This document shows, in pieces, positions 3,384-51,580 of a stretch of 64,000 nucleotides of DNA; the first letter of the stretch is position 1, and every line of letters begins with the position of its first letter. The stretch spans positions 11,816 through 75,815 of the forward strand of contig JBBIOJ010000003.1 in the NCBI GenBank assembly GCA_037443445.1. The letters are read 5' to 3'. Source of the DNA: Desulfarculaceae bacterium. Its GTDB lineage: Bacteria; Desulfobacterota; Desulfocorpusculales; Desulfocorpusculum. The notes below the pieces were generated by a model, which was not told where the DNA came from, did no database searches, and saw only the letters and a list, made by a program, of their open reading frames with translations. The translations under genes were made by a program, and so were the position numbers.

Positions 3384-3689
3384 TCAGCCCCCGGAGTAGA
3401 CCGGCAACACCCTGACCTGGTCCCCGTCTGCCAGGGCTTCCTCCAGGAGCCTTGAGGGGGAATCCAGCCTGTTGTTCTTGATGAACAAGAGCTGGTTTTT
3501 CAAGCAGCCTCCCTGGGCTTCAAAGAGCAGCTCCTTGAGCCCGGGATTCCTGCTGCCCATGGCCTCCAGGAGTTCCCTCAAGGTAGTGCCCTCTGGAATC
3601 TCCACCTTTGTCTTGGAGCGAAGGGGTGAGAGGATCTGGAAGTCCTCACCCAGTTCCTGGCCTGAGCCAAGCCAAAGCTCTAGCTCCAC
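3384..3689 (-). CDS. MoaD/ThiS-family small sulfur-carrier-like protein (AorD-like) downstream of the AOR gene
   Basis: C-terminal ~100 aa of the 3384..3830 ORF resembles MoaD (EGTTLRELLEAMGSRNPGLKELL ... DGDQVRVLPVYSGG, with terminal Gly-Gly). Likely GTG start just after or overlapping the AOR stop at 3695; the upstream part of the ORF overlaps the AOR gene and is not coding. Start is approximate. Confidence 0.6.
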   Translation of the reverse strand: MELELWLGSGQELGEDFQILSPLRSKTKVEIPEGTTLRELLEAMGSRNPGLKELLFEAQGGCLKNQLLFIKNNRLDSPSRLLEEALADGDQVRVLPVYSGG

Positions 3690-3694
3690 ATGTA

Positions 3695-5557
3695 TCACAG
3701 CTTCCTGGTCCCTGAGAGACCCTCCCACCAGGCCCTTATGCCCAGCCTCTCCAGGGTGGAGGAAAGTGGCCACCCGGTGGAAGGCTCCCATCCCATCTCC
3801 TCGTGGTACACCTTCAGCATCTCCTCCCAACGGGCCATTATGTCCCTGCCCGCTGCAGGACCGTCTTTAGGCACAGAGCCGTAACGCTGGGAAGGACGAA
3901 TTTGTTCCATTCTGAGGCCATGAGAGAGGTTGAAGAGCCTAAGTACATTCACCGCCCTGAGGCCCACCCGGAAGGCGTCTTCCAGGTTGAAGTTCCACCC
4001 TGTCACCGCATTGAAGGCCTTGAGTATGTGAAGGGGGTTCATGCTGGCCAACCTGCAGATGCCCACGCAGTCGTCGAACTGCCTGATGCCGTTGAACCTG
4101 GCGCAGATTCTGGCCACCTCCAGGTGGTCAAAGGGATCCTCCAGTTCCCTCATGCCCAGGAAAGAGGCCTGGATGCCACCGAAGGAGCTCTCTATGGTGG
4201 AGGTGTTGCTCACACAGGTGTCGAAGAGCTCTGTCCAACGCCCCCTGTGGTCGTGCCCCCTGGGGCTGGCTCCTCGCATGGTGTGGATGGCCCACTGGCT
4301 GGTCTCTCCCCCCAGCCTGGTGGCAGCCCTCATGACCCCTTCGGCAAGGAGCTCTCCCAGGAAGCCCTGTCTCCTGGAGATGCGCCCCAGGAGTTCTCTG
4401 ACAGCCTCCACATTCCCCCAGCTCAACTCCAGCCCTTCTGTCTGGGAGGGCTTCAAGACTCCCCTTTCACAGCATTCCATGGCCCATCCCACGCACCAGG
4501 AGGCCTCGTTGCAATCCATGCCCAGCCTGTCCACCTCGTGAGCCAGGACCACTGCCCCGCCGAGATCCGTGTTGCCGATCTGAGGCCCCCAGGCCGCAAG
4601 CTGCTCATATTCCGGCTCCTCTGCTGTAAACCCACTGTAAGGCCCCTCTGTGACAGTGACCTCTTTCACATGGGCCATACGGCACCTGAAGCAGGGCCGG
4701 GACTTGATACGGAAGTGGGTACGCAGGTACTGCCCGTTCATCTTCTCGTGTTCCTGGAAGATGTTGGTGGTGTAGTTGCGAACCGGAAGGGCTCCCTGCC
4801 CGTAGATGGTGGAAAAACCACCTCCTGTGCCCCACCTGTAAAACGGTCCGAATTCCTTCATGAATCCGAAACATTCCAGATCTGCTTTCTTCACCCCTTC
4901 TGGATCAGCCACAGAGAAGCCCCTGGGTGCCCTGTGTGCCACCAAGGCCTTGAGGTTCTTGGCCCCCATCACAGCACCCAGCCCGTTGTGGGCAGCCACG
5001 TGGCCCCCGTCTCCAACTATTGCCGCATAGCGCACCAAGTTCTCCCCAGCCGGGCCTATTGCAAAGACGCTTACCTGAAGTCTCTTGGCTCCGAGCTCTC
5101 TGTGCAGTTCCGCCTCGGTCTCATCCACGGGCAGGCCCCAGAGTCCCGAGGCGTCCTTGAGGGAGGCCCTTCCTTCCTTGATTTCCAGGTATACTGGTCT
5201 GGAAGAGCGTCCCTGCAGGATCACCCCGTCGAATCCCGAGAACTTCATATAGGCCCCCATGAATCCGTTGGCCTGGGAGGAGCCTGCCATCTCGGTCATG
5301 GGGCCCTTGGAAACCACGTTGAAGGTGGCAGCTCCACCAAAGCCAGACCCTCCCAGAGGTCCACAGGTAAATATCAAGCGATTTTCCGGATGGTCCCATG
5401 AGACGGTTGGTCCCACCTCTTCCATCAAGTACTTGGCGCCCAGGGCGACCCCCCCCACCCAAGTCCTGAGATCCTTCTCCAGCAACTCCTCGCTCCAGAT
5501 CTCTCCTCGGCTGAGATCCACCCTGAGCAGCCTGCCTAGATATCCTGGGGGAGCCAT
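3695..5557 (-). CDS. aor: Aldehyde:ferredoxin oxidoreductase (tungsten-containing AOR family)
   Basis: 620 aa. N-terminal GRLLRVDLSRGEIWSEEL matches the AOR N-terminal domain, and there is full-length similarity to tungstopterin AORs. Followed by a MoaD-like gene, as in characterised bacterial aor operons. Confidence 0.85.
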   Translation of the reverse strand: MAPPGYLGRLLRVDLSRGEIWSEELLEKDLRTWVGGVALGAKYLMEEVGPTVSWDHPENRLIFTCGPLGGSGFGGAATFNVVSKGPMTEMAGSSQANGFMGAYMKFSGFDGVILQGRSSRPVYLEIKEGRASLKDASGLWGLPVDETEAELHRELGAKRLQVSVFAIGPAGENLVRYAAIVGDGGHVAAHNGLGAVMGAKNLKALVAHRAPRGFSVADPEGVKKADLECFGFMKEFGPFYRWGTGGGFSTIYGQGALPVRNYTTNIFQEHEKMNGQYLRTHFRIKSRPCFRCRMAHVKEVTVTEGPYSGFTAEEPEYEQLAAWGPQIGNTDLGGAVVLAHEVDRLGMDCNEASWCVGWAMECCERGVLKPSQTEGLELSWGNVEAVRELLGRISRRQGFLGELLAEGVMRAATRLGGETSQWAIHTMRGASPRGHDHRGRWTELFDTCVSNTSTIESSFGGIQASFLGMRELEDPFDHLEVARICARFNGIRQFDDCVGICRLASMNPLHILKAFNAVTGWNFNLEDAFRVGLRAVNVLRLFNLSHGLRMEQIRPSQRYGSVPKDGPAAGRDIMARWEEMLKVYHEEMGWEPSTGWPLSSTLERLGIRAWWEGLSGTRKL

Positions 5558-5719
5558 AGGGAACCTCCTATTGTGGGGTCAGACTCGGATCGGATAGAAG
5601 GTATGAGCCTGGTTGGATGGCATGGAATCCAATGCCGAGAGGGAAAACACCGTGCAACCCAAAGGGCGGGACCGGCCTGATTCCGTCCAAGGAAAGACCT
5701 GGATCCCATGGAAAACTTG

Positions 5720-6946
5720 TCAGGAAAGCGCTGCCTTTTCCTTCCTGTATACGTAGACTGGCTCTTCGTTGCCTGCTATGACCCCCGGGGTGATGACGCA
5801 CTCGGCAAGACCCTGTTGGTCCGGCAGGTTGTACATTATATCCAACATGGCCTTTTCCAAAATGGTCCTAAGCCCTCTTGCCCCGCTTTTTCTCTTGATG
5901 GCCTCCCTGGCCACTGTGAGCAGCGTCTCCTCCAAGAACTCCAGGTGCACACCCTCCAGGTCGAAGAGGGCCTGATACTGTTTCACCAAGGCGTTCTTGG
6001 GCTCCTTGAGGATCCTGACGAGGTGCTCCTCTGAGAGCTCATCCAAGACAGCCACTATGGGCAGGCGGCCCACGAACTCGGGAATCATCCCAAACTCTAT
6101 CAGGTCCTCAGCCCGCACCTCGTGGAGTGGGTAAAGACCCTTGGGGGTTCTATCCTTTTCCGCTCTGAAGCCCAGTGCCCGTTGCTGGATCCGGCTTTGC
6201 ACTATTTTTTCCAAACCCACGAATGTCCCACCGCAAATGAAGAGGATTTGTGTTGTGTCCACCTTGTGGTACTGGCCTTTCATGCCCTTGGGATGGAGGT
6301 GCACAACAGTGCCTTCCAGCATCTTGAGAAGGGCCTGCTGAACGCCCTCCCCGGAGATGTCCCTTCCGTTGGCCGAGTTCACCGTGCGCTTGGCTATCTT
6401 GTCCGCTTCGTCTATGTAAACTATTCCCTGCTGGGCCCGCTCCTCGTCGAAGTCGGCGTTCTCCAGCAAGCGCATGATTATGTCCTCCACGTTCTCTCCC
6501 ACATAGCCCGCTTCGGTGATGGCAGTGGCGTCTGCTATGGCAAAGGGAACCTGAAGGATCTTGGCAAGGGTTTGGGCCAGGAAGGTCTTTCCAGATCCGG
6601 TGGGTCCTATGAGCAGGATGTTGCTCTTTTCCAGTTCCACGCCCTTGAGGGTTTTTCTTGCCTGCAGCCTCTTGTAATGATTGTGCACGGCCACGGCCAG
6701 GGTCTTCTTGGCCTCTTCCTGGCTTATGACGTACTCATCCAGAGCCTTCTTTATGCGAGAGGGCTTTGGAAAACCACCTGTCCGCTCGGCCCTGAACTCC
6801 TCTGCCAATATCTCGTTGCAAATCTGAACGCATTCGTCACAAATAAAGGCCTCTGTTCCCGAGATGAGCTTTCGAACCTCACTCTCGCTCTTGCGACAGA
6901 AGGAACAGTGGAGGCCGAGATCCTCGTCGAACGGTGTCCTCGCCAT
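5720..6946 (-). CDS. clpX: ATP-dependent Clp protease ATP-binding subunit ClpX
   Basis: N-terminal C4 zinc-finger ([27 protein letters not shown]), Walker A (GPTGSGKT) and full-length ClpX similarity. Start taken at MARTPFDE, the second Met of the ORF. No clpP is adjacent. Confidence 0.9.
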
Positions 6947-7063
6947 TAATTGCCCCCCGGCTCCCATGAATATCCGGCTTTGTTCTTGTTATAACACAGC
7001 AGCCCTCCCAAGCAAACCCCTGCTGATTTCTCATCGACCAGTGCAGTGCAGGACTTTAGCTGC

Positions 7064-8986
7064 TCAGAGCAGAACCTTTCCCGACTCGGAAGGGTCGTAC
7101 CCCCCCAGCGCCCGTACCCTTTCCCTGAACTCTTGGCTCCTTATCACCTCCAGGAGCAGTTCTATCCCCTGGGTCTGGAAGAACACCTCCGGGATCACCA
7201 GGTCATATCTCTCTGATTTTACCGGGATGAATTCGAGGCCGAGGGCCTTGGCTGCCGCAAGGATTCCCATTCCAGCATCGGCAGCACCGCTGGCCACTGC
7301 CACTGCCACTGCCATGTGGGTATACTCTTGCTGGTCGTAGCCCTGGATGCTTTTGGGTTCAATGCCCAGCTCCCTCAAATGGAAATCCAGTAGAACCCTT
7401 GTCCCCGAACCTGCCTGCCGATTCATGAAGCGGACTCCCGGGCGTGCCAGGTCTTTGAGTCCTTGAATGCCCAAGGGATTTCCGGGGGCCACCATCAGGC
7501 CCTGCTCTCGGTACACCAGATGAACCATCCTGACCTTCATTCCTTCGAGGTACCGGGCCACATAACTGAAGTTGTAATCCCCTGTTTCCGGATCCAGCAA
7601 ATGGGTTCCGGCCAGATGGGCCTGGCCCTTCCTGACAGCCATCAGCCCGCCCAGGCTACCCACGTTGCTGGATGCCAGCCCGTATCCTGACCCGAGGGCC
7701 CGGAGTCTATCATGTATCAAGTCCAGGGTGAGGTCGTGGCTCCCTATGGCCACAAGGGTTCGACCCAGCTCTTCGGGCCTCCTGAGAAGTTCCACCTCCA
7801 CCTCCTCCCCCTCGGCCACCCCTTCCAGATCCTCTGGAACCCTCAGGATTCCGTCTGCCCTGGTAAGACTGGTTATGGAGCCGGCTGCACGGGGAAGAGC
7901 CGTGGCTGCCATTTGATCCCCTACCTTCCCCAACCTCACCCTCACGAACTCCTCCATGCCTATTCGGGAAGTTATCTTCCTGGAAACCCGGGCTCGAACC
8001 CGGGGCCTGGAGGTGGGATCCACTCCCAGAAGCCTGGCCAGCAAGGGGCCCACTATTTGCTCGCAGGAGACCACGGCCGAGACCGGGTAGCCCGGATTTC
8101 CTATGACCGGCCTTTCCTTCACCACCCCTAGCACCGTAGGCTTCCCAGGCATCATGGAGATGCCGTGAACGAGCACCTCGCCCAGCTCTTCTATCACCTG
8201 GGCTGTCATGTCCTCGGAGCCCGCAGAGGAGCCGGCATTCACCACAACCACATCGAAATCCCCAAGGGCACTTTCCAGGGTGTTCTTGAGTTGCTCCGGG
8301 TCGTCCTTGACAATGGGAAAGCGCACGGCTTCCCCTCCCCACTGCTCCACCAAGGCCCCCAGCACCACGGTGTTGAACTCTATTATCTTTCCCGGGGGCA
8401 GAGCGCCTTGTCTTTCCCAGGCCTCCCATTCCAGGAGCTCCCTGCCTGTGGGGATCAGAGCTACCCTTGGCCTGGGATGCACCCAGAGCCTGGTTACTCC
8501 TGCTGCCAGGAGAGCACCCAGGTCGTAGGGAGTGAGCCTGTGGTTCTGGGGGAGCAGCAGCTCGGTGGCCACTATGTCCTCTCCCACTCGCCTCACGTTT
8601 TGCCATGGATAGGCTGGTCGCTCTATCTGGATCCTGTCCTGATCCAGCTCCACCACATCCTCGATCATGACCACCGCGTTGGTGCCCTGGGGAAGTGGAT
8701 TGCCAGTGTTGACCGGGTGGGCGTTCTGCCCCAGCTTGAGAACCAAAGGTCGGTCTGGGTGGGCTGAATAGGTTTCTTCTGCCCTGAGAGCAAATCCATC
8801 CATGGCTGCCCCGTGGTAAGAGGGAGCCGAAAGCCTGGCAAAGACCCCTTTTGCAGTAACCCTTCCCAGGGCCTGCACAGCCGTCACCTCCTCGGGTTGC
8901 CTCCACCCCCCTACAGGAAACCTCTCCAGGAATATTCTCCTGGCCTCCTCCAGGGAGCGCATCCTGAGATACACGCGACGTCTCAT
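7064..8986 (-). CDS. moeA: Molybdopterin molybdo/tungsto-transferase MoeA fused to a C-terminal periplasmic-binding-protein-like (PBP-like) oxyanion-binding domain
   Basis: N-terminal ~400 aa is MoeA (MDGFALRAEE..., GGVSMG-type region). C-terminal ~230 aa (GLASSNVGSLGGLMAVRKGQAHLAGTHLLDPETGDYN ... ) resembles the PBP-like domain found fused to MoeA. Start taken at MRRRVYL, overlapping the upstream moeA stop (ATGA). Confidence 0.75.
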   Translation of the reverse strand: MRRRVYLRMRSLEEARRIFLERFPVGGWRQPEEVTAVQALGRVTAKGVFARLSAPSYHGAAMDGFALRAEETYSAHPDRPLVLKLGQNAHPVNTGNPLPQGTNAVVMIEDVVELDQDRIQIERPAYPWQNVRRVGEDIVATELLLPQNHRLTPYDLGALLAAGVTRLWVHPRPRVALIPTGRELLEWEAWERQGALPPGKIIEFNTVVLGALVEQWGGEAVRFPIVKDDPEQLKNTLESALGDFDVVVVNAGSSAGSEDMTAQVIEELGEVLVHGISMMPGKPTVLGVVKERPVIGNPGYPVSAVVSCEQIVGPLLARLLGVDPTSRPRVRARVSRKITSRIGMEEFVRVRLGKVGDQMAATALPRAAGSITSLTRADGILRVPEDLEGVAEGEEVEVELLRRPEELGRTLVAIGSHDLTLDLIHDRLRALGSGYGLASSNVGSLGGLMAVRKGQAHLAGTHLLDPETGDYNFSYVARYLEGMKVRMVHLVYREQGLMVAPGNPLGIQGLKDLARPGVRFMNRQAGSGTRVLLDFHLRELGIEPKSIQGYDQQEYTHMAVAVAVASGAADAGMGILAAAKALGLEFIPVKSERYDLVIPEVFFQTQGIELLLEVIRSQEFRERVRALGGYDPSESGKVLL

Positions 8987-10212
8987 GGAAAGCTCTCCAC
9001 CTCCACCCAATCTCCGCTATAGAGCCCTTCGCAAAGAGGATCGATCCGGATCAATCCATCCGCCCTGGAAAGATTCCCTATGAGACCCGAGGAGCCCAGC
9101 AAGGGACGGGCCCAGAGTTCCCCTTGCCTTTGTTCCAGGGCCACCCTCACATAATCCTCTCTGCCCTGGGCTGAGGCCAGGTTTCTGGTGAGCCTTGCCC
9201 GAAAAGGTCTGGGTCTGTTGATGTAGCTTCTTCCGCAAATTCTGTCCAACAAGGGCCTTCCCAAGAGATGGAGGATCACCAGAGCTGAGACCGGATGTCC
9301 AGGGAGTCCCAAGAAGGGTTTCCCACCCACCTCTGCCACCAAAGTGGGTTTGCCCGGCCTCACTGCAAGACCATGGGCCAGCACCTCAGCACCCGGCAAT
9401 GCCTGGAGGGCCTCCATGAGAAAATCCCTGGTACCGACTGAGCTTCCCCCCGAGACTATTACCGCATCGGCCGTCTCCAGGGCTTCCCTGAGGGCTTTGG
9501 AGAGCTGCTCCAGCCGGTCCGGAATTATTCCCATGGGGAGGGCTATTGCGCCCTCCAGGTTCACCCAGGAACAAACGGAGACCCCATTTACATCCCTTAC
9601 CTGGCCCGGAGCAGGCTCCGTGTGGACAGGCACCACTTCGTCCCCAGTGGAAAACACGGCCACCGATGGCTTTCGGTAAACCCAAAGCCTGGTTGTCCCC
9701 AGAGCCCCCAGGATCCCCAGATCCTGGGGCCTCAAGCTCCATCCCGAGGGCAGCACCTCCTGGCCTGCAGAGACGTCCTCCCCGGGTCTCACCACGTTCT
9801 CCCATGGAGCCACGCTCCTGTACACCTCCAGGGTTTCCGAGTCCAGTTGCTCTGCATGCTCTATCATGACAACAGAGTCCGCGCCTTCCGGCAGCATGGC
9901 GCCGGTGGCCACCCGCACGGCCTCCGAACCCCTCAGGGTCATCTGGGCGGGCTCCCCCATGCGCACTTCGCCCACTAGGCGAAGCAGGGCAGGCAGCCCC
10001 TCGCTGGCTCCAAAAGTGTCTTGGGCCTTTACAGCAAAGCCGTCCATGGTAGCACGCGGGAAACCCGGCAGGTCTTCCTTCGCCACCACCGTCCTGGAAA
10101 GCACTCTGCCCAGGGCATTCCAAAGCTCCACTTCCTCTTCCCCCGCCGGGGAAAATCTTTGGAATTCGGCCACCACCTCCTGGCGGCTTCTCACCCTGAA
10201 GAAGCGGATCAC
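8983..10212 (-). CDS. moeA: Molybdopterin molybdo/tungsto-transferase MoeA (second paralog)
   Basis: 409 aa with full-length MoeA similarity (ATMDGFAVKAQD, GAMLPEGADSVVMIE, GGSSVGTRD). In tandem with the MoeA-PBP fusion gene. Confidence 0.85.
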   Translation of the reverse strand: MIRFFRVRSRQEVVAEFQRFSPAGEEEVELWNALGRVLSRTVVAKEDLPGFPRATMDGFAVKAQDTFGASEGLPALLRLVGEVRMGEPAQMTLRGSEAVRVATGAMLPEGADSVVMIEHAEQLDSETLEVYRSVAPWENVVRPGEDVSAGQEVLPSGWSLRPQDLGILGALGTTRLWVYRKPSVAVFSTGDEVVPVHTEPAPGQVRDVNGVSVCSWVNLEGAIALPMGIIPDRLEQLSKALREALETADAVIVSGGSSVGTRDFLMEALQALPGAEVLAHGLAVRPGKPTLVAEVGGKPFLGLPGHPVSALVILHLLGRPLLDRICGRSYINRPRPFRARLTRNLASAQGREDYVRVALEQRQGELWARPLLGSSGLIGNLSRADGLIRIDPLCEGLYSGDWVEVESFP

Positions 10213-10829
10213 CCTCTGCCTCCTTGTCCCATCAGATCCAGGGGAAGCCCCTTGGCCTCCATGGAATCCCAGTACTCCTTGGCCACCACCTCCACTCCGG
10301 GAAGCGGACCGGAGCCCAGGATTTCCCTCGTGATCTGGTGCACCAGGGCTTCTTCCCTGGCCCTATCCAAAGGATAGGCCTCGAAGCTTTGCAGGAAAAG
10401 GCTGAATCTAACTATGTGCACCAGCTCGTGGGTGACCACATAGACCAGCAGAGGGAAAAGTGAGAGCTCTCTATCCCTGTCCAGGGCCCTTAGTATCACG
10501 TGATCCTGGAGGCATATCTTGTAGAAATCGAAATGAGAACTGCGAAGGCCGCTTTCGGCGGGTTGCCCCAGGTATCGGATTATCTGGGCAAAAGCCTCAT
10601 CGGTCAGCTCACCTTCCTTGAGCTTGGCCGCTGTTTGGATGTCGTAACGGCATCTTCTCCATTGGCTGGTGGAGTACTTGAAATGCTCGCTGGTCAGCTC
10701 TTCGGCCACGGCAACGGCCTCGTCCACCACTGCCAGGTGCTCCTGGTCGAAGCTCCGCCGCAGGATGCCTACAGATCCCAACCCCCAGCTCCATGGGTCC
10801 ACTTGCGAAGAGCGGATCACACAATTCAA
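10209..10829 (-). CDS. Hypothetical protein with HExxH motif (possible zinc-dependent hydrolase), co-operonic with moeA
   Basis: 206-aa ORF overlapping the moeA start by 4 nt. Contains VVTHELVHIV (HExxH). No confident family assignment. Confidence 0.5.
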   Translation of the reverse strand: MNCVIRSSQVDPWSWGLGSVGILRRSFDQEHLAVVDEAVAVAEELTSEHFKYSTSQWRRCRYDIQTAAKLKEGELTDEAFAQIIRYLGQPAESGLRSSHFDFYKICLQDHVILRALDRDRELSLFPLLVYVVTHELVHIVRFSLFLQSFEAYPLDRAREEALVHQITREILGSGPLPGVEVVAKEYWDSMEAKGLPLDLMGQGGRG

Positions 10830-10859
10830 ACCGGCTCTTGTGCCGGAAACCCTGCTTGG

Positions 10860-10954
10860 TGGCGGAGAGACCGGGATTCGAACCCGGGGTAGAGCTTTTT
10901 GGCCCTACACTCGCTTAGCAGGCGAGCCCCTTCAGCCGTCTCGGGCATCTCTCC
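10860..10954 (-). tRNA. tRNA-Ser (anticodon GCU), class II with long variable arm
   Basis: Hand fold of the reverse complement: acceptor GGAGAGA/TCTCTCC, anticodon stem CTCGC/GCGAG with loop CTGCTAA (anticodon GCT), long variable arm, T-arm CCGGG-TTCGAAT-CCCGG, discriminator G and encoded CCA. 95 nt. Confidence 0.85.
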
Positions 10955-11057
10955 TCGATCGGGTAAAACGGGTGAGCTCGGCCACCCAATGCCTTCCACT
11001 ATAGACCAGCGGCCCGTTCACAGTCAATGTGGCCGCTTGGGTCGGATTCGGCTTTCC

Positions 11058-11744
11058 CTAATCAGGACTTCGAAGCAGCATCCTCACTGGTCGTAGGTCT
11101 TTCAACAGGCTGGCCAGGCTGAGCCCTCTTGGATCCTGGACCAGGTGAACCCATCCCCCCACATGCACCAATACGCGGTATCTGCCTGCCATGTTCCTGA
11201 TCCTGCAGGCCATAAACATCTCCCGCAAGAGCCCCCTCTTGTACACCCAGGGGGGAGTTATTCCGACTTCTTTCAGGAGACCTCCTGAATCCAGACAGCG
11301 GCGGGCCCTGGCATAGGCTGCCAGAATCCTCTCTCCCAGGTCGGCTTGTTCCCTGGAGAGAAGAAGGGCCAAGTTTTCCCTGGTCAGGATTTCCTTTTCG
11401 TACCCTGGGAGCTCCTCTCTGGAGACCCAGTTGAGGTCTGTGAGGTGCAAAGGAATCCCATGGCTGGAAGCATAATCCCGACAGGCCAGATACTCGAAGG
11501 GGAGCCCCAGGGCCTGGACCATGAGCCTTACCTCGGGGTGAGCCTTGGCTGCGGGGGGGAACTCCTCCAGAAGTGAGTCCAGCTTGCCCAGGAGCTTGGG
11601 GCCCATCTGCTCTCTCCAGAGCAGCCCCAGGGGGCTCAGCTCCACGCCCAAGGCCTGGGGCCGGAGCTTCTCAAGGCTCTTGCAGAGGTAAATGGCCCCC
11701 TGAGGGTCCCTGTGGACAACCCCCAGCAGTACAAGAAGCCCCAT
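11058..11744 (-). CDS. TraB/GumN-family protein (Tiki/TraB/GumN superfamily)
   Basis: N-terminal LLGVVHRD...ALGVELSP and C-terminal VLVHVGGWVHLV resemble TraB-family signature regions (GTAH...VELC / GxxH). 228 aa. Confidence 0.55.
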   Translation of the reverse strand: MGLLVLLGVVHRDPQGAIYLCKSLEKLRPQALGVELSPLGLLWREQMGPKLLGKLDSLLEEFPPAAKAHPEVRLMVQALGLPFEYLACRDYASSHGIPLHLTDLNWVSREELPGYEKEILTRENLALLLSREQADLGERILAAYARARRCLDSGGLLKEVGITPPWVYKRGLLREMFMACRIRNMAGRYRVLVHVGGWVHLVQDPRGLSLASLLKDLRPVRMLLRSPD

Positions 11745-11823
11745 GGAAAGGGATCCTCCCCCATGGTTGCCTTCGGAGTTTCTTGATGGAAATCCGAGCC
11801 CCAGCCCCCAGGATCCACAATTT

Positions 11824-12591
11824 CTACTTGGGAGGCATGCGAAGGGCTCCGTCGAGCCTTATGGTCTCCCCGTTGAGAACCGGATTCTGGATTATGTGCT
11901 GAACCAGCATGGCGAACTCGTGAGGCCTTCCTAGCCTTGGGGGAAAAGGTATCTGCTGGCCCAGGGAGGTGCGGATCTGCTCAGGGAGGCCTGCCAAGAG
12001 GGGAGTGTCGAAGGTGCCAGGAGCTATGGTCACCACCCGGATACCGAAACGGGCCAACTCCCGGGCTGCAGGAAGGGTAAGTCCCACGATGCCGGCCTTG
12101 GAGGCTGCGTAGGCCACCTGCCCGATTTGGCCCTCGAAGGCAGCTATGGAGGCGGTGTTGACGATCACGCCCCTTTCTCCCTCCGAGTCGGGCTGGTTGC
12201 GAGTCATGTAGAAAGCAGCCCACCTCAACACATCAAAGGTGCCCACGAGGTTTATGTTCAGAACTCTGACAAAATGATCAAGCTCATGGGGCCCCTCCTT
12301 ACCCACCACCTTTGCTGGAGTGCCAACCCCAGCGCAGTTGACAGTTATGTGCACGGCTCCGAACCTCTCCACGGCCGAATTCATGGCAGCTTGGACCTGG
12401 GAGGTGTCTGTCACGTCGGTGCAGAAGAAAGCAGCCCTCTGCCCCAGCTCCGTGCAAAGGGCCAGGCCCCTGTCCTGGCTCACATCCAGTAGAACCACGT
12501 TGGCCTCCAAACTGTGAAGAAGCCTGGCTGTGGCCTCTCCGAGCCCGCTCACCCCTCCTGTGATCACAGCGGTCTTGCCTTTGATATCCAT
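11824..12591 (-). CDS. SDR-family oxidoreductase (3-hydroxyacyl-CoA dehydrogenase-like short-chain dehydrogenase)
   Basis: [15 protein letters not shown] Rossmann motif, catalytic [12 protein letters not shown] (YxxxK) and NAG motif. 255 aa. Confidence 0.8.
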
Positions 12592-12860
12592 CTTTTCTCA
12601 TCCCCCTTCTCAGGCTCAATACCGAAGCAGATACTCTCGGCCAAAGATAAGACCTTTAAGGAATGCCCAATCCTACTGGTGAGGGACAGCAGGTGTCAAG
12701 AAGACCTGCCTTCTGGGAAGGGTCCCTGCCCCTGATACTCCCAAGGCAGGAGGCTTCTTTTCCTGATTAGTCCGGAAAAGCTTTGGGGGACACAGATCCC
12801 AAGGGGGAAACCCCGGAGGGATCTGACACGTCAAAAAACTGGGGGCAGGGAGGTGAAAAA

Positions 12861-13427
12861 ATGAGGGCAAAGATACCCGGCATAGGCGGGGTGCTCCTGG
12901 GTTTTTCCCTGGCCGTGCTTTCTGGTTGTTCCCATGTGATCTCTCAAGAGATGAGAGCCAAGGCCAGGGAGGATCTGGAGTTCACCATGGTCTTGGCAGA
13001 CCCTGAGCGTTATCATGGAGAGACGGTCATCTGGGGGGGTGTGATCCTGGAGACCGAGAACAAGGCAGAGGGCACTACACTGGTGATTCTGGAGACCCCT
13101 TTGGATTGGGAAGGGGCTCCCAGGCACGCGGAGTTCTCCAGGGGCAGATTCTTGGCCCGTACCGGCAGTTTCTTGGACCAGGCAGTATACAGCCAGGGTC
13201 GCAAGGTAACCGTGGCCGGTGAGGTGGCTGGGAGGGAAGTGCGAAGGGTTGGGGACCTGTCTTACGGGTACCCGGTGGTGTGGATCCGCGAGATACATCT
13301 TTGGCGGGAAACCCCAGGAGCATGGGTTCCAGCCCATCCCTGGGGGCCGTACTGGTATTGGGGAGGTCCGTATTGGTACTGGGATTGGTGGTGGCCCGGG
13401 TGGAGGCCACATTGGCGCAGGCGTTGA
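12861..13427 (+). CDS. slp: Slp-family outer-membrane lipoprotein with Trp/Tyr-rich C-terminal repeat tail
   Basis: ATG at 12861 preceded by GGAGGTG. Lipoprotein signal with lipobox LSGC. Slp-like core (PERYHGETVIWGGVILETENKAEGTTLVILETPLD...). C-terminus GPYWYWGGPYWYWDWWWPGWRPHWRRR is encoded by a near-perfect tandem DNA repeat. Confidence 0.7.
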   Translation: MRAKIPGIGGVLLGFSLAVLSGCSHVISQEMRAKAREDLEFTMVLADPERYHGETVIWGGVILETENKAEGTTLVILETPLDWEGAPRHAEFSRGRFLARTGSFLDQAVYSQGRKVTVAGEVAGREVRRVGDLSYGYPVVWIREIHLWRETPGAWVPAHPWGPYWYWGGPYWYWDWWWPGWRPHWRRR

Positions 13428-13432
13428 GAAGG

Positions 13433-14293
13433 ATGGGGATCCTGTGCAGGGCGGGCCTCATCTTCTGGTTTTGCCTTTTTGGAGTGGCCCGGGAGACTTG
13501 GGCTGACTGGCCCGAGCAGCCTTTGATAGAGAGGCTCACAGACGGCTCCAGGATGGGCCTCAGCAGGCTCACCTCGGAACTCAGGGGAAGTCCATTTGTG
13601 CTGGTGGGGGAGCTTCATGAGGAGCCCGAGCACCACAGGGCTCAGTTGATGCTCATCAGGGCGCTTTGGGAGGCCAAGGTGCCCTTGGCCATAGGCATGG
13701 AGATGTTTCGACAGGATGCACAGGAAGCCCTGGACAGCTGGACCAGGGGGGGGCTCTCCGAGGAGGAAATGGAGCAGATCTTTGGGCAGAACTGGGCCGA
13801 GACCTCCTGGCTCCTGTACCGGGACATACTGCTCTTTGCCAGGGAGAAATCCATTCCTGTCTTGGGGTTGAACCTGCCCAGGGAGATCACCCAGAAGGTG
13901 GCCTCCGGGGGTTATGCGAGCCTGCCTGAGGAGATGAAAAAGCACTGGGGGGAGGTGTCCTGCGACCTCCAGGAGCCCTACAGGAGCTTTGTGCACTGGG
14001 CCTTTGAGGCCCACGGGGACAGCAAGGAGGAGAGTTGGGAGAATTTCTGCCAGGCCCAGATCCTCTGGGATACGGCCATGGCCGTAAGACTTCTGGATTA
14101 TCGGGAAGCAAATCCCCAGACCACCATCGTGGTCCTGACAGGGGTGGGACATGCCTGGATGCACGGGATCCCGCAAAGGATAACCCAGCGCTCATACTTG
14201 CTCTGCAGGGTGATCCTCCCGGATCTGCAAGGAAGACTAAAGCAGGGTAAACTGGGGACCGAGGACGCCGACTATCTTTGGCTTAGGTATTGA
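13433..14293 (+). CDS. ChaN-family (Cofac_haem_bdg/DUF399) protein, Tiki/TraB/GumN superfamily, secreted
   Basis: ATG at 13433, 5 nt after the slp stop. Signal-peptide-like N-terminus. Motifs LVGELHEEPEHHRAQL, LAIGMEMF, NWAETSWLLYRDILLFARE, PVLGLNLPREI and GVGHAW match ChaN-family conserved blocks. Confidence 0.7.
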   Translation: MGILCRAGLIFWFCLFGVARETWADWPEQPLIERLTDGSRMGLSRLTSELRGSPFVLVGELHEEPEHHRAQLMLIRALWEAKVPLAIGMEMFRQDAQEALDSWTRGGLSEEEMEQIFGQNWAETSWLLYRDILLFAREKSIPVLGLNLPREITQKVASGGYASLPEEMKKHWGEVSCDLQEPYRSFVHWAFEAHGDSKEESWENFCQAQILWDTAMAVRLLDYREANPQTTIVVLTGVGHAWMHGIPQRITQRSYLLCRVILPDLQGRLKQGKLGTEDADYLWLRY

Positions 14294-15009
14294 TTGTCCG
14301 GCCGGCTCACCAAAGGGAGCCTGGGACCGAGGGAAATTCCCTCGGGGCTGACCAATGCCGTGTAAGCCCAGATTTCCACCCCCATCTCCAGGGCCTTCCA
14401 GAAAAGTTCCGCGTACCTCGGATCCACGAAGTCGGCTGGGGCAAAGCAGCGGGCGTCCTGGCGCTGTACCAGGTAAAAACACGCTGCCCTCTCCCCTTCG
14501 GCTGCAAGGGCCATGAGTTTTTGAAGGTGGCGTTGACCCCTTTGAGTCACGGCGTCAGGGAAGTAGGCCACATCATATTCCACCAGGGTGACATTCTTGG
14601 CCTCGATCCAAAGACGCTTCCCAGGAGAACTCAGAAGTGCGTCTATCCTGTTTTCACCCACCTGCACCTCGGGGTAGAATTTGCCGTACCCGTGTGCTTC
14701 TGGCAGAAGCCCTCGCTCCCAGGCTCTCCTGAGGACTCGGTTGGGGGTGAGGGTATTGATTCCGACCCAGGTGCTGTTGGAGCGCACCAGCTCCAGGGTG
14801 TAAGGAAACTTCCTCCCGGGCCTCTGGGCAGGCGAAGCAATCACCCGGTTTCCAGGCCTCAGCAGGCCCATCATGCTCCCGGAATTGTTGCAGTGGACCC
14901 AGAAGCTTCCTGCTCTTGCCTCCACCTCCACAAGAAACCTCTTCTCCCTCCTTATGAACTTGCCCCTTAGTACACCCTGGGGGAAAACAACCAGATGCTC
15001 CTGGCTCAC
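14272..15009 (-). CDS. sfsA: Sugar fermentation stimulation protein A (SfsA) family
   Basis: Similarity to SfsA along the ORF (KFIRREKRFLVEVE, VHCNNSGSMMGLL, YFPDAVTQRGQRHLQKLMALAAEG). The ORF as tracked (to 15135) would overlap the upstream thioredoxin-like gene; a GTG at about 15009 aligns with the SfsA N-terminus. Start uncertain. Confidence 0.7.
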   Translation of the reverse strand: MSQEHLVVFPQGVLRGKFIRREKRFLVEVEARAGSFWVHCNNSGSMMGLLRPGNRVIASPAQRPGRKFPYTLELVRSNSTWVGINTLTPNRVLRRAWERGLLPEAHGYGKFYPEVQVGENRIDALLSSPGKRLWIEAKNVTLVEYDVAYFPDAVTQRGQRHLQKLMALAAEGERAACFYLVQRQDARCFAPADFVDPRYAELFWKALEMGVEIWAYTALVSPEGISLGPRLPLVSRPDNQYLSQR

Positions 15010-15080
15010 AGGCTCCAATCCCTTCCCTTTGAAATAATAATCCGCCCCCCAATGCTCACGGGCAAGGGGGGCGGGCGCTC

Positions 15081-15656
15081 TTAGTTTATCAGCCTGTACG
15101 GCTGGGCTCTCTTGGCCCATTCGCTGCTCGGCCACTTCCTCTGGAGCTCCTCATAGGCCTCCCTGAGATGTTTTGGCTCGTGGGTATGCTTGTAAAGGGC
15201 CACCCCCTTCAGGAACATGGCCTCAGCAGCCGCGTCACTGCCGGGATGATGCTCCAGGATGCCCTCAAGGGCCGAGACGGCCTCCTGGAAGCGTCCGGCA
15301 TCAAAATGCACCTTGGCTATGCCCAGCCAGCCCGAGGGCACAAACTCCTCCGGGGGTAGAAAGCCTACTGTCCTGTGGTGCTCCTTCCCATCGGTGTCCA
15401 GGGTAACCAGGGTAGGAGTCCACTGCAGATTGAAGTCCCTGGCAAGGGGTTGGGTGTCGAAGCTAACCCTCAGCCCCACGAAATTCTGGTTTACGAAATC
15501 TCTGACAGTTTCCTTGGGATACGTGACCGCATCCATCTGCTGACAGCCAATTCAACCGGGGTTGAAAAAATCCAGGAGCACGGGCTTTTTCTCCTGCCTG
15601 GCCCTCTGAAGGGCCCTTTCCCAACTGGTTTCCCAGAGGATGCTCTCGCTGGCCAT
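15081..15656 (-). CDS. Thioredoxin-fold protein with UxxC redox motif, putative selenoprotein (in-frame TGA Sec codon at 15552-15554), with C-terminal TPR-like region
   Basis: Two same-frame ORFs (15552..15827 and 15081..15536) are separated only by a TGA. Read-through gives ...KPVLLDFFNPG-U-IGCQQMDAVTYP..., i.e. the stop sits exactly where the first Cys of a thioredoxin CxxC would be. Strong SD (AAGGAGGG) 5 nt upstream of ATG at 15656 (MASESILWETSW...). A 7-bp stem/GUCA-loop hairpin begins 17 nt downstream of the UGA. Confidence 0.75.
15517..15534 (-). promoter_or_regulatory. Putative bacterial SECIS-like hairpin (GGAUGCG-GUCA-CGUAUCC) downstream of in-frame UGA
   Basis: Perfect 7-bp stem (one G-U pair) with a GUCA apical loop. 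Starts 17 nt 3' of the UGA, which places the apical loop about 24 nt from the UGA. Consistent with the spacing and loop G/U features of bacterial SECIS elements. Confidence 0.5.
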
Positions 15657-17914: not shown

Positions 17915-20900
17915 ATGCCGAAGCGCACCGATATCAGCAACGTCATGATCATAGGTTCCGGGCCCATAGTGATAGGCCAGGCATGCGAGTTCGACTATTC
18001 CGGAACACAGGCTTGTAAAGCCTTGAGGAGACTGGGATATAGGATAGTACTTGTGAATTCCAATCCTGCCACGATCATGACGGATCCGGGAATGGCCGAC
18101 ATTACTTACGTGGAACCTCTCACCCCGGAAGCCTTAGAACAAATCATTCAAAAAGAGAAACCCGATGCCATACTGCCCAATTTGGGAGGGCAGACAGGAT
18201 TGAACCTGACATCCGAGCTTCACAGAAGAGGGGTTTTGGAAAAGTACGGGGTCAAGGTCATAGGCGTTGCCGTGGATGCAATAGAAAGAGGGGAGGACAG
18301 GATAGCATTCAAACAGACAATGGCGCGTCTCAATATAGATGTACCCAGGAGCGAGCCTGCCTACACGATTGAAGAAGCGCTTCGAATAGCGGAAAAGTTG
18401 GGCTATCCGGTGGTTGTTCGCCCGGCTTACTGTTTGGGTGGAACAGGGGGGGGGCTTGGTTTACAACGTAGAGGAACTGAAGGTCGTGGCAGCCAGAGGT
18501 CTAAGTGCCAGCATGGTAGGGCAGATTCTGGTAGAGGAGTCCGTTGAGGGCTGGGAGGAGCTGGAGCTGGAAGTTGTGAGAGACGCCAAGAATCAGATGA
18601 TCACCGTCTGCTTCATAGAGAACGTGGATGCCATGGGAGTGCATACTGGCGACTCCTTTTGCGTGGCACCCATGCTAACCATAGATCCTGAGCTGCAACA
18701 AAGACTCCAGAAGCACTCCTACAATATCGTGGAGGCCATCAAGGTCATTGGGGGAACAAATATCCAGTTCGCCCACGACCCCAAGACAGGACGGCTGGTG
18801 GTAATAGAGATAAACCCCAGAACCTCAAGGTCTTCCGCCTTGGCCTCCAAGGCCACGGGTTTTCCCATCGCTTTCGTATCTTCCCTATTGGCGGCTGGAC
18901 TCACCCTTGACGAAATTCCCTATTGGAGAGAAGGCACCCTGGATAAGTACACCCCCTGCGGGGATTACGTGGTGGTGAAATTCGCCAGATGGGCTTTCGA
19001 GAAGTTCAAGGATGCTCATGACAGGCTTGGGACTCAGATGCGGGCGGTAGGGGAGGTCATGAGCATAGGGAAGAATTACAAAGAGGCCCTTCAAAAGGCC
19101 ATCCGCTCCCTGGAGATAGGCCGGCACGGGCTTGGCTTTGCAAAGGATTTCCACCTCCGAGGTCTGGAAGAACTAATGGACATGCTCTCTGAGCCAACCA
19201 GTGAGAGGCAGTTCCTGATGTACGAGGCCCTCAGAAAAGGTGCCTCGGTAGAAGCGCTTTACAGAAAAACTTACATCAAGCCTTGGTTTATAGAGCAGAT
19301 GAAGGAACTGGTGGAGTTGGAGGAAATGCTCCTTAAGTTCAAAGGGAAGGAGGTTCCTGATGAACTCCTGAGACGGGCCAAGAAAGATGGTTTTTCTGAC
19401 AAGTACCTATCTAAGTTGCTAGGGACTCCCGAGTTGGAGATACGCGAAAAAAGGAAGGCCGTTGGGGTTGTTCAAGGTTACGAAGCAGTGCCTGTAAGCG
19501 GGGTGGAGAAGGGAGCTTACTATTTTCCCACCTATAACGCCCCCGATGCGGTCCCGGTCAGCTCCAGACCCAAGGTGATGGTCTTGGGCGGAGGCCCCAA
19601 CCGAATAGGTCAGGGGATAGAGTTCGACTATTGTTGCGTGCACGCAGCCTTCGCCCTTAAAGACGAGGGGTACGAAGCCATCATGGTGAACTGTAATCCC
19701 GAGACCGTCTCCACCGACTACGACACCTCGGACCGCCTGTACTTTGAGCCTCTTACAGGAGAGGACGTTCTAGGTGTTTACGAAAAGGAGAAACCTCAAG
19801 GGGTCATAGTACAGTTCGGGGGGCAGACTCCCCTTAACATTGCAAGAGAGCTAGCCGAGCAGGGAGTCCGAATATTGGGCACTTCCTACGAGTCCATAGA
19901 TTTGGCTGAGGACAGGGACCGGTTCAGGCAAATGATGAGCAGACTGGGCATACCACAGCCCGCCTCGGGCATGGCCAGTTCTATGAGTGAAGCCCTGGAA
20001 GTGGCAAACAAAATAGGTTACCCCCTCATGGTCCGCCCATCCTATGTTTTGGGAGGCCGGGGCATGGAAGTTGTCCATGACCGCGCAATGTTGGAAACAT
20101 ACGTTGCAGAGACTGTGGGTGTCACACCCGAACGTCCCATTCTGATAGACAGGTTCTTGGAGGATGCCATCGAGGCGGAGGCCGATGCCATATCAGACGG
20201 AAAGGAGGCCTTCGTGCCTGCTGTGATGGAGCATATAGAGTTGGCCGGGATTCATTCCGGGGACTCTGCCTGCGTTATACCCCCGGTGAGCATTCCTCCA
20301 AAGCACATGGAGACGATCCAAGAATATACCCGCCGCATAGCCGTAGAACTAAATGTGGTGGGCCTCATGAACATACAGTACGCCATATACCGAGACACGG
20401 TTTTCGTGCTGGAGGCCAATCCCCGAGCTTCCAGAACAGTGCCTCTGGTGTCAAAGGTTTGCGGCATCCCCATGGCAAGACTAGCCACCAACGTGATGAT
20501 GGGGAAACGTATCTCGGAGTTCCCCCTCCAGCTCCCCAGAATAGCTCACTACGGGGTTAAGGAATCGGTTTTCCCTTTCAACATGTTTCCGGAGGTGGAT
20601 CCGGTGCTGGGCCCGGAGATGCGCTCCACGGGAGAAGTGTTGGGCTTGGCCGAGTCTTTTGGCCTAGCCTTTTACAAGTCCCAGGAGGCGGCCCAGCAAC
20701 GGTTGCCTCTCAAAGGCACAGTGCTCATCACCGTGTCGCCTCAGGACAGGCCCGCAGTGCTGGAGGTGGCCAGGCGTTTCCAGGACCTGAACTTTCGCAT
20801 CCTGGCCACCCAGGGCACTCAGAGTTTCTTGGCCGAGCACTCCATCAAAGCCGAGCGAATCCTGAAGATGCACGAGGGAAGGCCTAACATAATAGATGGG

Positions 20901-21119
20901 ATAAAGAATGGAGATATTCAACTGGTCATAAACACCCCTAGTGGGAAGCTGAGCTCCTATGACGACTCCTACATTCGAAAGGCAGCTATCCGCTATAGAG
21001 TGCCCTACATTACGACTCTGGCGGCTGCCATGGCGGCGGCAAAAGGAATCGAGGCCTGTCTGGAGAAGAATTGGTCTGTGAGATCTCTCCAAAGCTTTCA
21101 TCGTGGGGAAGAGGCTTAG
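17915..21119 (+). CDS. carB: Carbamoyl-phosphate synthase large subunit CarB, reading frame interrupted by a +1 frameshift in a G9 homopolymer (18446-18454)
   Basis: N-terminal part ([30 protein letters not shown]...[15 protein letters not shown]) is in the 17819 frame. The remainder ([11 protein letters not shown]... to ...FHRGEEA) is in the 18414 frame. The two join cleanly if one G of the G9 run is removed. Combined length is about 1068 aa, typical for CarB. Confidence 0.85.
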
Positions 21120-43443: not shown

Positions 43444-44571
43444 GTGCAACAGCAAGCGGTTCGTGTTGTGAAAACCTATAGCATAGTCGTCCTGCCTGGG
43501 GATGGAATAGGACCTGAAATCGTAGAGGCTGCCTTGGAGGTCCTGGACACTCTTCAAGAAGTTCTAGGGGAATTTAGGCTTTCCTATCAGATTCATAGAG
43601 CCGGGGCCAGCCTTTATCAGGAGACGGGGGTGCCCATCGGAAAAGAGGCCATTGAGGCCTTTCGGGACTGCCGCGTTGCTCTCAAAGGCCCGGTCGGGCT
43701 CCCCACGGTTCGTAAGCCTGATGGTACCGAGGCGGGGCTTCTGGGGGGAATCCTGAGATGCGGATTCGATCTCTACGCCAATGTGAGACCCATCTGCCTT
43801 CTTCCCAAGGTGCCCGGCCCATTGGCCGGTATCACCCCCGAAGGGCTGGATTACGTGATCGTAAGGGAGAACACAGAAGGTCTGTACCTCTCCCGGGGGC
43901 TGGGATTGGTGACACCGCAGGCAGCAACGGACACCATGCTTATGACCGCCGTGGGGTGTGAAAGAATAGCCCGATTCGCCTTCCGTACGGCCTTGATGAA
44001 GAGGCGGGGGGCTCCAGAGGACGGCAAGAAAAGAGTCACACTCGTTGACAAGAGCAATGTTCTTAGATCTTTCGCCTTTTTCAGGAAGATCTACTTGAAA
44101 ATAGCCGAGGAGTTCCCAGAGGTGGAAGCGGAGTGCATGTACGTGGATGCGGCCTGCGCAGCACTGGTTAGTCGCCCGGGCCATTTCCAGGTGATCGTGA
44201 CCGAGAATCTCTTCGGAGATATACTTAGCGACCTCGGGGGGGCAACGGTGGGAGGGCTTGGCTTTTGTCCCTCTGGGAATATAGGGGAGACCCACGCATA
44301 CTTCGAACCAATCCATGGCTCGGCCCCGGACATAGCGGGCCGCGGGCTCGCAAACCCAACGGCCCAGATTCTTTCGGCCGCCATGATGCTGGATTACTTG
44401 GGAGAGCAGCGTGCGGCCGAGATGTTGCGCAATGCAGTTAGGAGGGTCTGGGCCGAAGCTCCACTGAGGCTGGAGGCAGGAGGGTGGGTCATAGGAGGAG
44501 CGCAGAGCGTGACCAGGGCAATAAGAGAGATGCTCCTTGCGGCCGAAGAGGGCGCCCATGAGATCCGCTGA
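43444..44571 (+). CDS. Isocitrate/isopropylmalate dehydrogenase-family protein (tartrate/D-malate or NAD-isocitrate dehydrogenase-like)
   Basis: SIVVLPGDGIGPEIVEAALEVLD N-terminus and conserved family blocks. 375 aa. Substrate not assignable from sequence. Confidence 0.7.
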   Translation: MQQQAVRVVKTYSIVVLPGDGIGPEIVEAALEVLDTLQEVLGEFRLSYQIHRAGASLYQETGVPIGKEAIEAFRDCRVALKGPVGLPTVRKPDGTEAGLLGGILRCGFDLYANVRPICLLPKVPGPLAGITPEGLDYVIVRENTEGLYLSRGLGLVTPQAATDTMLMTAVGCERIARFAFRTALMKRRGAPEDGKKRVTLVDKSNVLRSFAFFRKIYLKIAEEFPEVEAECMYVDAACAALVSRPGHFQVIVTENLFGDILSDLGGATVGGLGFCPSGNIGETHAYFEPIHGSAPDIAGRGLANPTAQILSAAMMLDYLGEQRAAEMLRNAVRRVWAEAPLRLEAGGWVIGGAQSVTRAIREMLLAAEEGAHEIR

Positions 44572-49157: not shown

Positions 49158-49187
49158 GAAAAGGGGAGAACCCCCATTGGAGAAACC

Positions 49188-51539: not shown

Positions 51540-51580
51540 GCTCGCACAAGAGCTGTCTCGGGCCCCAAGCGTTTCTCAGA

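Follow-up and report, generated by a model that had tools for sequence, protein, structure and literature searches.

Archaeal-type MoeA proteins carrying a fused PBP domain also occur in a few bacterial phyla, their paralogues being usually contiguous, and the PBP-fused form, which is accompanied by TupA in 86% of cases, has been proposed to be a tungsten insertase (PMC11733289). Two MoeA copies have been taken as a sign that an organism uses both tungsten and molybdenum (PMC13328260), and genetic work in M. extorquens has established one MoeA as tungsten-selective (PMC13197769). In the AAA+ unfoldase ClpX, residues of the pore-2 and RKH loops contact and recognise the ssrA degron, and human ClpX, with other residues at T199 and H230, fails to degrade ssrA substrates (PMC7652416). 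Mitochondrial ClpX, which lacks the RKH motif, promotes cofactor insertion into ALAS via partial unfolding (PMC7077987), and in S. aureus MoeA is a substrate of ClpXP in vitro (PMC9067530). Here we describe a six-gene neighbourhood in 64,000 nt of the genome of a Desulfarculaceae bacterium (contig JBBIOJ010000003.1, positions 11,816 to 75,815; this whole stretch is the window), in which a divergent clpX follows a moeA–moeA::PBP pair, with a gene for an HExxH protein before the pair, and with genes for an aldehyde:ferredoxin oxidoreductase (AOR) family protein and a ThiS-like protein after clpX.

What is new here is a clade of ClpX proteins whose specificity loops have been remodelled and whose genomic partner, MoeA, is fixed; the rest of the locus is either commonplace or known from earlier work. 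In full-text searches no paper was found to connect a ClpX variant with moeA, the sole connection being the S. aureus MoeA–ClpXP report. ClpX is the most interesting element of the locus, for a reason other than the missing clpP that was remarked upon in the initial annotation, a reading of the sequence alone that took the six genes together as a dedicated module for tungsten cofactor insertion. As to the genes themselves that reading is borne out by open reading frame (ORF) calls and profile searches: six co-directional genes with the domains it had named occupy the minus strand between positions 3384 and 10829 (Table 1).

The protein exceeds the cutoffs of two ClpX equivalog models (NF003745, 571.8 bits against 359; TIGR00382, 539 bits against 370.75) and matches E. 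coli ClpX structures at E 6e-144. A search of 5.8 billion proteins gave about 7,900 scored homologues, the best 120 of which were compared, and individual residues were compared, in E. coli numbering, between the 22 members of the window's clade and 100 canonical ClpX. As in bacterial ClpX of the E. coli type, all 22 keep the four cysteines of the C4 zinc-binding N-domain (PF06689, 62.7 bits), Walker A K125, Walker B E185, the arginine finger R307, sensor-2 R370 and the pore-1 residues Y153 and V154, and the GYVG pore-1 loop is retained in the window protein on alignment to E. coli ClpX. The IGF-type ClpP-docking loop reads L/M/I-G-F in 22 of 22 members, and LGF in the window. Since this loop is kept, the absence of clpP nearby is no argument for a chaperone working without its protease. 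There is no clpP, tig or lon in any lineage locus, nor among the ORFs of at least 100 amino acids in the window.

A score so far above the cutoff, and the retention of zinc-finger cysteines, GYVG, Walker motifs, sensor residues and docking loop, are also what would be expected if this were simply the lineage's only, housekeeping ClpX. By that account the gene has left clpP and the protein has drifted, the position beside moeA is inherited gene order, and the AOR, ThiS-like and HExxH genes are chance neighbours. We regard this as a real possibility, if one with less than even odds. In its favour, ClpX is strongly conserved within the lineage (79–96% identity where the HExxH protein has 57–88%), and no second clpX was seen on the lineage contigs, of each of which about 20 kb was read.

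The extent and the position of the divergence argue otherwise. Among the matches listed, only 21 clusters lie at 69–96% identity to the window ClpX, after which there is a sharp drop, every other ClpX being 58–62% identical; these include the canonical ClpX of Desulfarculus, Desulfomonilia, Thermosulfurimonas, Binatia, Betaproteobacteria and Terriglobales. Among the best 120 of the roughly 7,900 homologues, the 22 clade members are 66–97% identical to one another and 52–63% identical to every other sequence, and canonical ClpX of different phyla are 63–90% identical to one another, with a median of 72%. A neighbour-joining tree makes the 22 monophyletic on a stem of 0.208, with a root-to-tip distance of 0.674 as against 0.485 ± 0.022 for canonical ClpX. 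Drift of a housekeeping protein would have to explain why the median identity between clade and canonical ClpX (59%) is lower than that between the ClpX of E. coli and of Desulfarculus (68.6%; Desulfarculus and the window share 59.7%), despite the HExxH, MoeA and AOR genes placing the organism among the Thermodesulfobacteriota. It would also have to explain a fall in ClpX identity from 79% to 62% or less at the edge of the lineage, where that of the HExxH protein declines smoothly (57% inside, 53–56% outside).

The changes in ClpX concentrate in its specificity elements, leaving the motor and ClpP docking intact. In the RKH loop, HPKGMKGQ, with a deletion of four residues, replaces the canonical PPKGGRKHPQQE; R228K, K229G and loss of H230 are found in 22 of 22 clade members, and R, K and H in 100 of 100 canonical proteins. 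In the pore-2 loop, SANGRDI replaces PSITRDV, with T199G and V202I in every clade member and the canonical residues in all 100 others. By the residue set of PMC7652416 the clade is altered at four of the six positions that recognise ssrA-type Ala-Ala-COO- degrons, and seven of the 25 columns that discriminate it from canonical ClpX fall in the zinc-binding domain. It is difficult to attribute to drift the replacement, throughout one clade, of ssrA-recognition residues that are invariant in all canonical sequences compared. Given that these residues and the zinc-binding surface have changed, while motor and docking have not, we infer that the client set of this ClpX has narrowed or shifted. Mitochondrial ClpX offers a likeness by analogy only: it too lacks the pore-2 and RKH residues with which bacterial ClpX recognises ssrA, and it leaves ssrA substrates undegraded (PMC7652416), but the window protein is far nearer to bacterial ClpX, mitochondrial chains matching at E of about 1e-92 over part of the length.

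The genomic position of the gene is equally distinct. Whereas in Desulfarculus sp. and one other organism canonical ClpX with the RKH motif are encoded in a tig–clpP–clpX–lon context, the order moeA–moeA::PBP–clpX is found in 11 of the 11 distinct clade loci with readable context (the window, L081/82/88, L001, L083/84, L085, L173, L175, L174, L087, L002/L170 and L168/169), the ClpX of which are 73–96% identical to that of the window. The outer flanks differ from locus to locus, both upstream (SDR, PutA, toxin–antitoxin genes, DUF3786, a short-chain fatty acid transporter, an SNF2 helicase) and downstream (AOR, an AI-2E transporter, a CoA-transferase, a glycosyltransferase), and the block itself has received insertions, namely def between moeA2 and clpX in L087 and a glycosyltransferase gene between the two moeA genes in L168. 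That three genes keep their order while every outer flank is reshuffled speaks against simple inheritance of an ancestral arrangement by a housekeeping gene. The presence of ClpX after the MoeA pair is not incidental: the remodelled clade is strictly syntenic with it. The initial annotation had looked to conservation of the whole neighbourhood, and of this the moeA–moeA::PBP–clpX part is confirmed in all 11 loci; the AOR (4 of 11) and the family-level link of the HExxH protein are not.

Within the spacer between moeA2 and clpX lies a promoter-like element that had escaped the initial annotation, comprising TTGCTT (7015–7010), a 16-nt gap and the extended −10 sequence TGtTATAAC (6996–6988). Its TTG and TG-TA-A columns are invariant in the eight distinct lineage spacers that were aligned, and the resulting pattern, TTG-N16/17-TGnTATAA, is matched also in L173 and L175. 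A generic promoter scan missed the element because its −10 ends in C and the scan applies a strict final-T rule. Having a conserved promoter of its own, clpX can therefore be transcribed separately from the moeA genes, and this too would suit a housekeeping gene. In L168, the most basal locus of the ClpX clade, MoCF_biosynth (MogA/MoaB-like) and MOSC genes occupy 14221–15167, about 9 kb downstream of clpX, which adds to the genes related to the molybdenum cofactor around the block.

The moeA–moeA::PBP genes are the known archaeal-type pair. As in the pairs already described (PMC11733289), the two genes are contiguous and one has a C-terminal fusion to a cytoplasmic PBP-like domain; what differs is that in this lineage a divergent clpX always comes after them. 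Both proteins have the full MoeA_N, MoCF_biosynth and MoeA_C architecture by profile search, and both are closest among solved structures to Pyrococcus MoeA, the best PDB match in each case being P. horikoshii MoeA 1uz5 (E 1e-78 for MoeA1, with E. coli MoeA at about 1e-55; E 6.5e-68 for MoeA2, again nearer than E. coli MoeA). The C-terminal domain of MoeA2 matches PBP_like (PF12727) with 262.8 bits, and the whole protein scores 773 bits with the equivalog NF011068, the cutoff of which is 534. The tandem MoeA genes had been read as a sign of metal selectivity, and a pair with a PBP fusion is indeed a recognised signature of tungsten use (PMC11733289, PMC13328260). MoeA2::PBP is thus a predicted tungsten insertase of archaeal type, and its metal is presumably tungsten. 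An attempt to assign tungsten and molybdenum to the two proteins by their pocket residues was uninformative, since both are canonical: read by eye, with no alignment to the M. extorquens protein, each has PGK and the canonical Ser (GHPVS and GYPVS). Separately, the C-terminus of MoeA2::PBP (7064–7090, minus strand) has the form ...GGYD(P/A)SxSG(K/E)(V/L)LL in most lineage members. We considered it as a candidate degron, but it could also be the end of the PBP fold and is uninterpretable without out-group sequences.

The AOR-family protein downstream of clpX matches AFOR_N (215 bits) and AFOR_C (273 bits), and its best solved structure is P. furiosus AOR (PfAOR, 1AOR; E 7e-89). It therefore belongs, as had been proposed, to the tungstopterin AOR/WOR family and not to the xanthine-dehydrogenase type. 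Its two pterin motifs, DRLGMD (DxxGxD) and DCVGIC (DxxGxC), align to those of 1AOR and are invariant in its clade, of which 121 sequences were aligned. The small protein encoded after it, a ThiS/MoaD-like beta-grasp protein of the sulfur-carrier kind, matches PF02597 (40.4 bits, cutoff 22.5), ends in YSGG followed by the stop codon, and falls below the curated cutoffs of the MoaD_arch and SAMP1 models (TIGR01687, 33 bits against 49.5; NF041918, 30.8 bits against 60). Its start may be GTG 3698, where GTGA overlaps the AOR stop codon, GTG 3689, or 3731, the choice of gene callers in relatives. Class I single-subunit WORs have a nearby ThiS-like gene, named WorX, with a presumed role in pterin biosynthesis (PMC13328260), so the MoaD-like gene noted beside the AOR follows an established pattern. 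The two genes are the known pairing of a Class I WOR with WorX: like Class I WORs and PfAOR, the enzyme is a single large subunit with AFOR_N and AFOR_C, both pterin motifs and Glu313; its neighbours are clpX and the GG-ending ThiS-like gene, and no gene for an electron-transfer subunit is adjacent.

The clade differs from PfAOR, however, at the [4Fe-4S] site and in the active site. Of the PfAOR [4Fe-4S] ligands C288, C291, C295 and C494, the counterparts C289, C292 and C501 are present, and the third cysteine is replaced by His296, giving CxxCxxxH. This histidine is invariant in the 121 sequences, which have in addition an invariant Cys497 and a second pterin motif of the form DDCxGxC. Residues typical of aldehyde-oxidising WORs are Thr243, Glu313, Tyr427 and His448 (PMC13328260); the Thr and Glu are kept, but Tyr427 has become His435 and His448 has become Glu456 (NTSTIE for NRGGCH), again invariantly. 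As two of these four residues are replaced, "aldehyde oxidoreductase" is here a family label only. The changes suggest an unusual ligation of the cluster and a chemistry other than aldehyde oxidation. The clade is widespread in metagenomes of Thermodesulfobacteriota and Chloroflexota, and as we identified no characterised member we regard it as uncharacterised.

In 80 metagenome loci of this AOR clade (L088–L167; 46–86% identity), a homologous or GG-ending small gene stands directly behind the AOR in about 39 of the 72 that extend far enough downstream, while moeA, clpX or HExxH lies within 10 kb in just one, L088, which is of the window's own lineage. Within that lineage the AOR follows clpX in four of the 11 loci (the window, the L081 group, the L083 group and L001). 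These counts bear directly on the initial annotation's dedicated tungsten-insertion module around the AOR, which in its strongest form would be a single six-gene operon making the tungsten cofactor and inserting it into the AOR next door, with the help of ClpX and the HExxH protein as chaperones of the insertion. Several features would fit such an operon: the genes are co-directional, those for the HExxH protein, MoeA1 and MoeA2 overlap by 4 nt, the moeA2–clpX–AOR stretch has no predicted intrinsic terminator on its coding strand, and the six-gene block recurs in the L081/L088 group (HExxH 87–88% identical) and the L083 group (72%), while in L001 (67%) it can be followed past clpX as far as residue 37 of an AOR, where the contig stops. 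Yet 79 of 80 AOR loci are without moeA, clpX and HExxH within 10 kb, seven of the 11 lineage loci have moeA–moeA::PBP–clpX without an AOR, and 78 of 80 HExxH loci have no moeA, clpX or AOR nearby. Furthermore, clpX has its own promoter, and the spacer between clpX and AOR is unconserved, varying from about 135 to 490 nt, and a conserved promoter there was rejected on this ground. The neighbourhood comparison has already largely refuted the single operon, and we consider it very improbable; a module built around the AOR is not supported, and the initial reading as a whole is upheld only in part.

The HExxH protein has no Pfam or NCBIfam match by profile search. Its relatives are 190 amino acids long, which fits the TTG start at 10781 behind a GGAG-rich stretch. 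Invariant in the family are HELxH (H134–H138, in 206-residue numbering), E159, E160, H164, C106, Q108, D109 and H110, so that HExxH is accompanied by a downstream acidic third ligand on a predicted zincin fold. We therefore describe it as a small predicted zincin (gluzincin-like) metallohydrolase of an unnamed family. It differs from minigluzincins, YbeY and 3cmn-type zincin-fold hydrolases in having no profile match to Pfam or NCBIfam families and in the additional invariant residues C106, Q108, D109, H110 and H164. Homologues number at least 1473, or 360 representatives when clustered at 50% identity, and nearly all are stand-alone proteins of 170–200 amino acids from Thermodesulfobacteriota.

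In 80 genome loci the neighbours of HExxH include Band_7/SPFH upstream in 40, Zn_ribbon_8 just downstream in 47, GroES in 26 and GroEL in 35, and moeA and clpX stand beside it in only two, L001 and L002. Outside the window's lineage (L003–L080) the recurrent order is SPFH/Band_7–HExxH–Zn_ribbon_8 (FmdB-like)–groES–groEL, which suggests an uncharacterised metalloprotease attached to the chaperonin operon in Desulfobacterota. At the level of the family, the context of HExxH is proteostasis and not cofactor synthesis, and its inclusion in a cofactor-insertion module is accordingly not supported by its usual company. In the window the 4-nt overlap of the HExxH gene with moeA1 is present as annotated (10209 against 10212), and the gene lies upstream of moeA1 in nine of the ten lineage loci with upstream sequence. 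It is missing from L173, and for that reason is dispensable for the core block. A third context is seen in L086, from the same sample as L083, where a 63%-identical homologue stands beside an archaemetzincin-type Peptidase_M54 gene and a radical-SAM gene (10001–12960), with a different AOR 3.6 kb downstream.

Such a family history raises another explanation of the locus, namely that the HExxH zincin and ClpX form a proteostasis module in which the two moeA genes are passengers, parallel to HExxH–groES/groEL in other Desulfobacterota. Chaperone genes or genes related to membrane proteases do lie beside the HExxH family in most genomes, and the near-constant place of HExxH upstream in the lineage would agree with this. 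However, L173 keeps moeA–moeA::PBP–clpX without HExxH, the HExxH gene is translationally coupled to moeA1 rather than to clpX, and the two moeA genes are never missing between them. We think this explanation improbable.

The reading we favour, at a probability of about one half, is that the locus is mosaic, three units having come to lie side by side in one Thermodesulfobacteriota lineage, with the MoeA pair and a dedicated, divergent ClpX as its conserved core and with MoeA-linked proteins as the clients of that ClpX. The first unit would be moeA and moeA::PBP followed by the specialised ClpX. Tungstate is probably bound by the cytoplasmic PBP domain of the fusion and passed on to the active site of the insertase. 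ClpX retains what it needs for ATP hydrolysis, polypeptide threading and docking on ClpP, and its clients would be narrowed or shifted; as clpX is genetically locked to the MoeA pair, the likeliest clients would be the MoeA insertases themselves or apo-pterin enzymes, and a functional link between MoeA and ClpX may be supposed. ClpX might act by regulated ClpXP proteolysis or by a partial unfolding that gates cofactor insertion, and the extended −10 promoter would allow its level to be set independently of the moeA genes. MoeA-linked clients are made plausible by the two precedents cited above, S. aureus MoeA with ClpXP and mitochondrial ClpX with ALAS. The second unit, the Class I WOR with WorX, would be a self-contained two-gene module placed after clpX in a sub-lineage only, the WOR probably consuming the tungsten-bis-pterin cofactor made by the MoeA pair. 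The third would be the HExxH zincin, normally found with proteostasis genes and here translationally coupled to moeA1, whatever part it may play.

It is important to note that several points weigh against this reading. The link between ClpX and MoeA rests on synteny and altered loops, and the clade may stem from one organismal lineage, in which case synteny and divergence could have been inherited together without functional coupling. If the same genomes have no canonical clpP–clpX, the divergent ClpX must serve general proteolysis. The promoter of clpX, a moeA2–clpX spacer of about 100–300 nt and the possibility of def intervening mean that co-transcription of moeA and clpX is not required. 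As to the metal, the ORFs of at least 100 amino acids in the 64-kb window include neither tupABC nor wtpABC, and the pocket substitutions that bias M. extorquens MoeA1 towards tungsten, Lys to Arg and Ser to Ala (described from one organism; PMC13197769), are absent, on our by-eye reading, from both window MoeAs. With the canonical Lys and Ser in both, metal specificity is therefore a matter of inference. Finally, the WOR is without two of the four residues of aldehyde oxidisers.

A sharper version of the favoured mosaic would make the moeA-linked ClpX a second, dedicated paralogue beside a canonical clpP–clpX, gatekeeping the insertion of the tungsten or molybdenum cofactor. Its rebuilt loops and zinc domain would recognise MoeA::PBP or apo-tungstoenzymes, leading to their degradation or partial unfolding. 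We put this forward tentatively and hold it to be somewhat unlikely; if true, this ClpX would be a bacterial counterpart of the mitochondrial ClpX that acts on ALAS.

The choice of substrates by ClpX has mostly been studied in enzymes of the E. coli type, in which the RKH and pore-2 loops are invariant across the 100 canonical sequences compared here. A natural clade that differs in exactly those residues and has a fixed genomic partner is a system for asking how AAA+ unfoldases gain clients. An unfoldase or protease tied to a predicted tungsten insertase would, if the link is true, add an undescribed layer of post-translational control to the means by which cells discriminate tungsten from molybdenum and control cofactor insertion. 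By-products of the analysis are an uncharacterised WOR clade in which an Fe-S ligand and residues of the active site are changed, and a zincin family without a name whose genes keep company with those of chaperones.

Table 1. Features of the moeA–clpX neighbourhood, in window coordinates
Feature	Position	Strand	Details
tRNA-Ser(GCU)	10860-10954	-	Rfam RF00005, 53.5 bits; ARAGORN
HExxH gene	ORF 10209-10829, likely start TTG 10781	-	190 aa
moeA1	8983-10212	-	409 aa, GTG start; MoeA_N + MoCF_biosynth + MoeA_C
moeA2::PBP_like	7064-8986	-	640 aa, ATG start; PF12727, NF011068
clpX promoter-like element	6988-7015	-	in moeA2-clpX spacer
clpX	5720-6946 (alternative ATG 6967)	-	408 aa; NF003745
ClpX pore-2 loop, remodelled	6356-6376	-	SANGRDI
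ClpX RKH loop, remodelled	6272-6295	-	HPKGMKGQ
AOR-family gene	3695-5557	-	620 aa; AFOR_N + AFOR_C
ThiS-like gene	3384-3698, start uncertain	-	PF02597; C-terminal ...SGG

The stop codon of the HExxH gene overlaps the start of moeA1, and that of moeA1 the start of moeA2, by 4 nt each; the spacer between moeA2 and clpX is about 100 nt in the window, and that between clpX and AOR is 162 nt. Directly upstream of the HExxH gene is a tRNA-Ser(GCU), also overlooked at first, which by promoter and terminator scan has a promoter-like site before it (11027–10998) and a hairpin with a T-run after it (10846–10831). The same tRNA-Ser is upstream in L001, L081 and L083, and not in L002, L085, L087 or L170; it is common to the sub-lineage in which the MoeA pair and the AOR–ThiS pair adjoin. 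A 228-residue ORF at 11058–11744 (minus strand), between an SDR gene and the tRNA, has no Pfam or NCBIfam match, and its conservation (67%) is confined to the closest relatives, L081, L082 and L088.

We also looked for regulatory elements. An Rfam search found no molybdenum cofactor (Moco) riboswitch; at gathering thresholds it returned the tRNA only, and between 3200 and 11200 it gave nothing credible, as a Moco or tungsten cofactor riboswitch or as any other RNA element, at E ≤ 1. The CIRCE heat-shock operator had zero matches in the window even with three mismatches allowed. Neither a mod transporter nor a further Moco gene occurs among the ORFs of at least 100 amino acids.

The remaining ORFs of that size are ordinary chromosomal genes, among them dnaB, carB, glyA, ribH, nusB, nrdR, fab genes, a tricarboxylate cluster and sensor kinases. 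carB (17915–21116, plus strand) appears frameshifted: residues 1–181 of its L081 orthologue align to frame 2 (17915–18457) and residues 178–1067 to frame 3 (18447–21116), with 96–97% identity across both parts. The break probably reflects faulty sequencing or assembly and not true decay of an essential gene. At 40922–43273 (plus strand) a PAS-PAS-HisKA-HATPase sensor histidine kinase carries a C-terminal GNAT acetyltransferase domain, an uncommon fusion. The tricarboxylate-metabolism cluster (43444–54818) comprises two genes of the isocitrate/isopropylmalate dehydrogenase family, an FAD oxidoreductase gene and an aconitase-family gene, together with tctCBA transporter genes and prpF.

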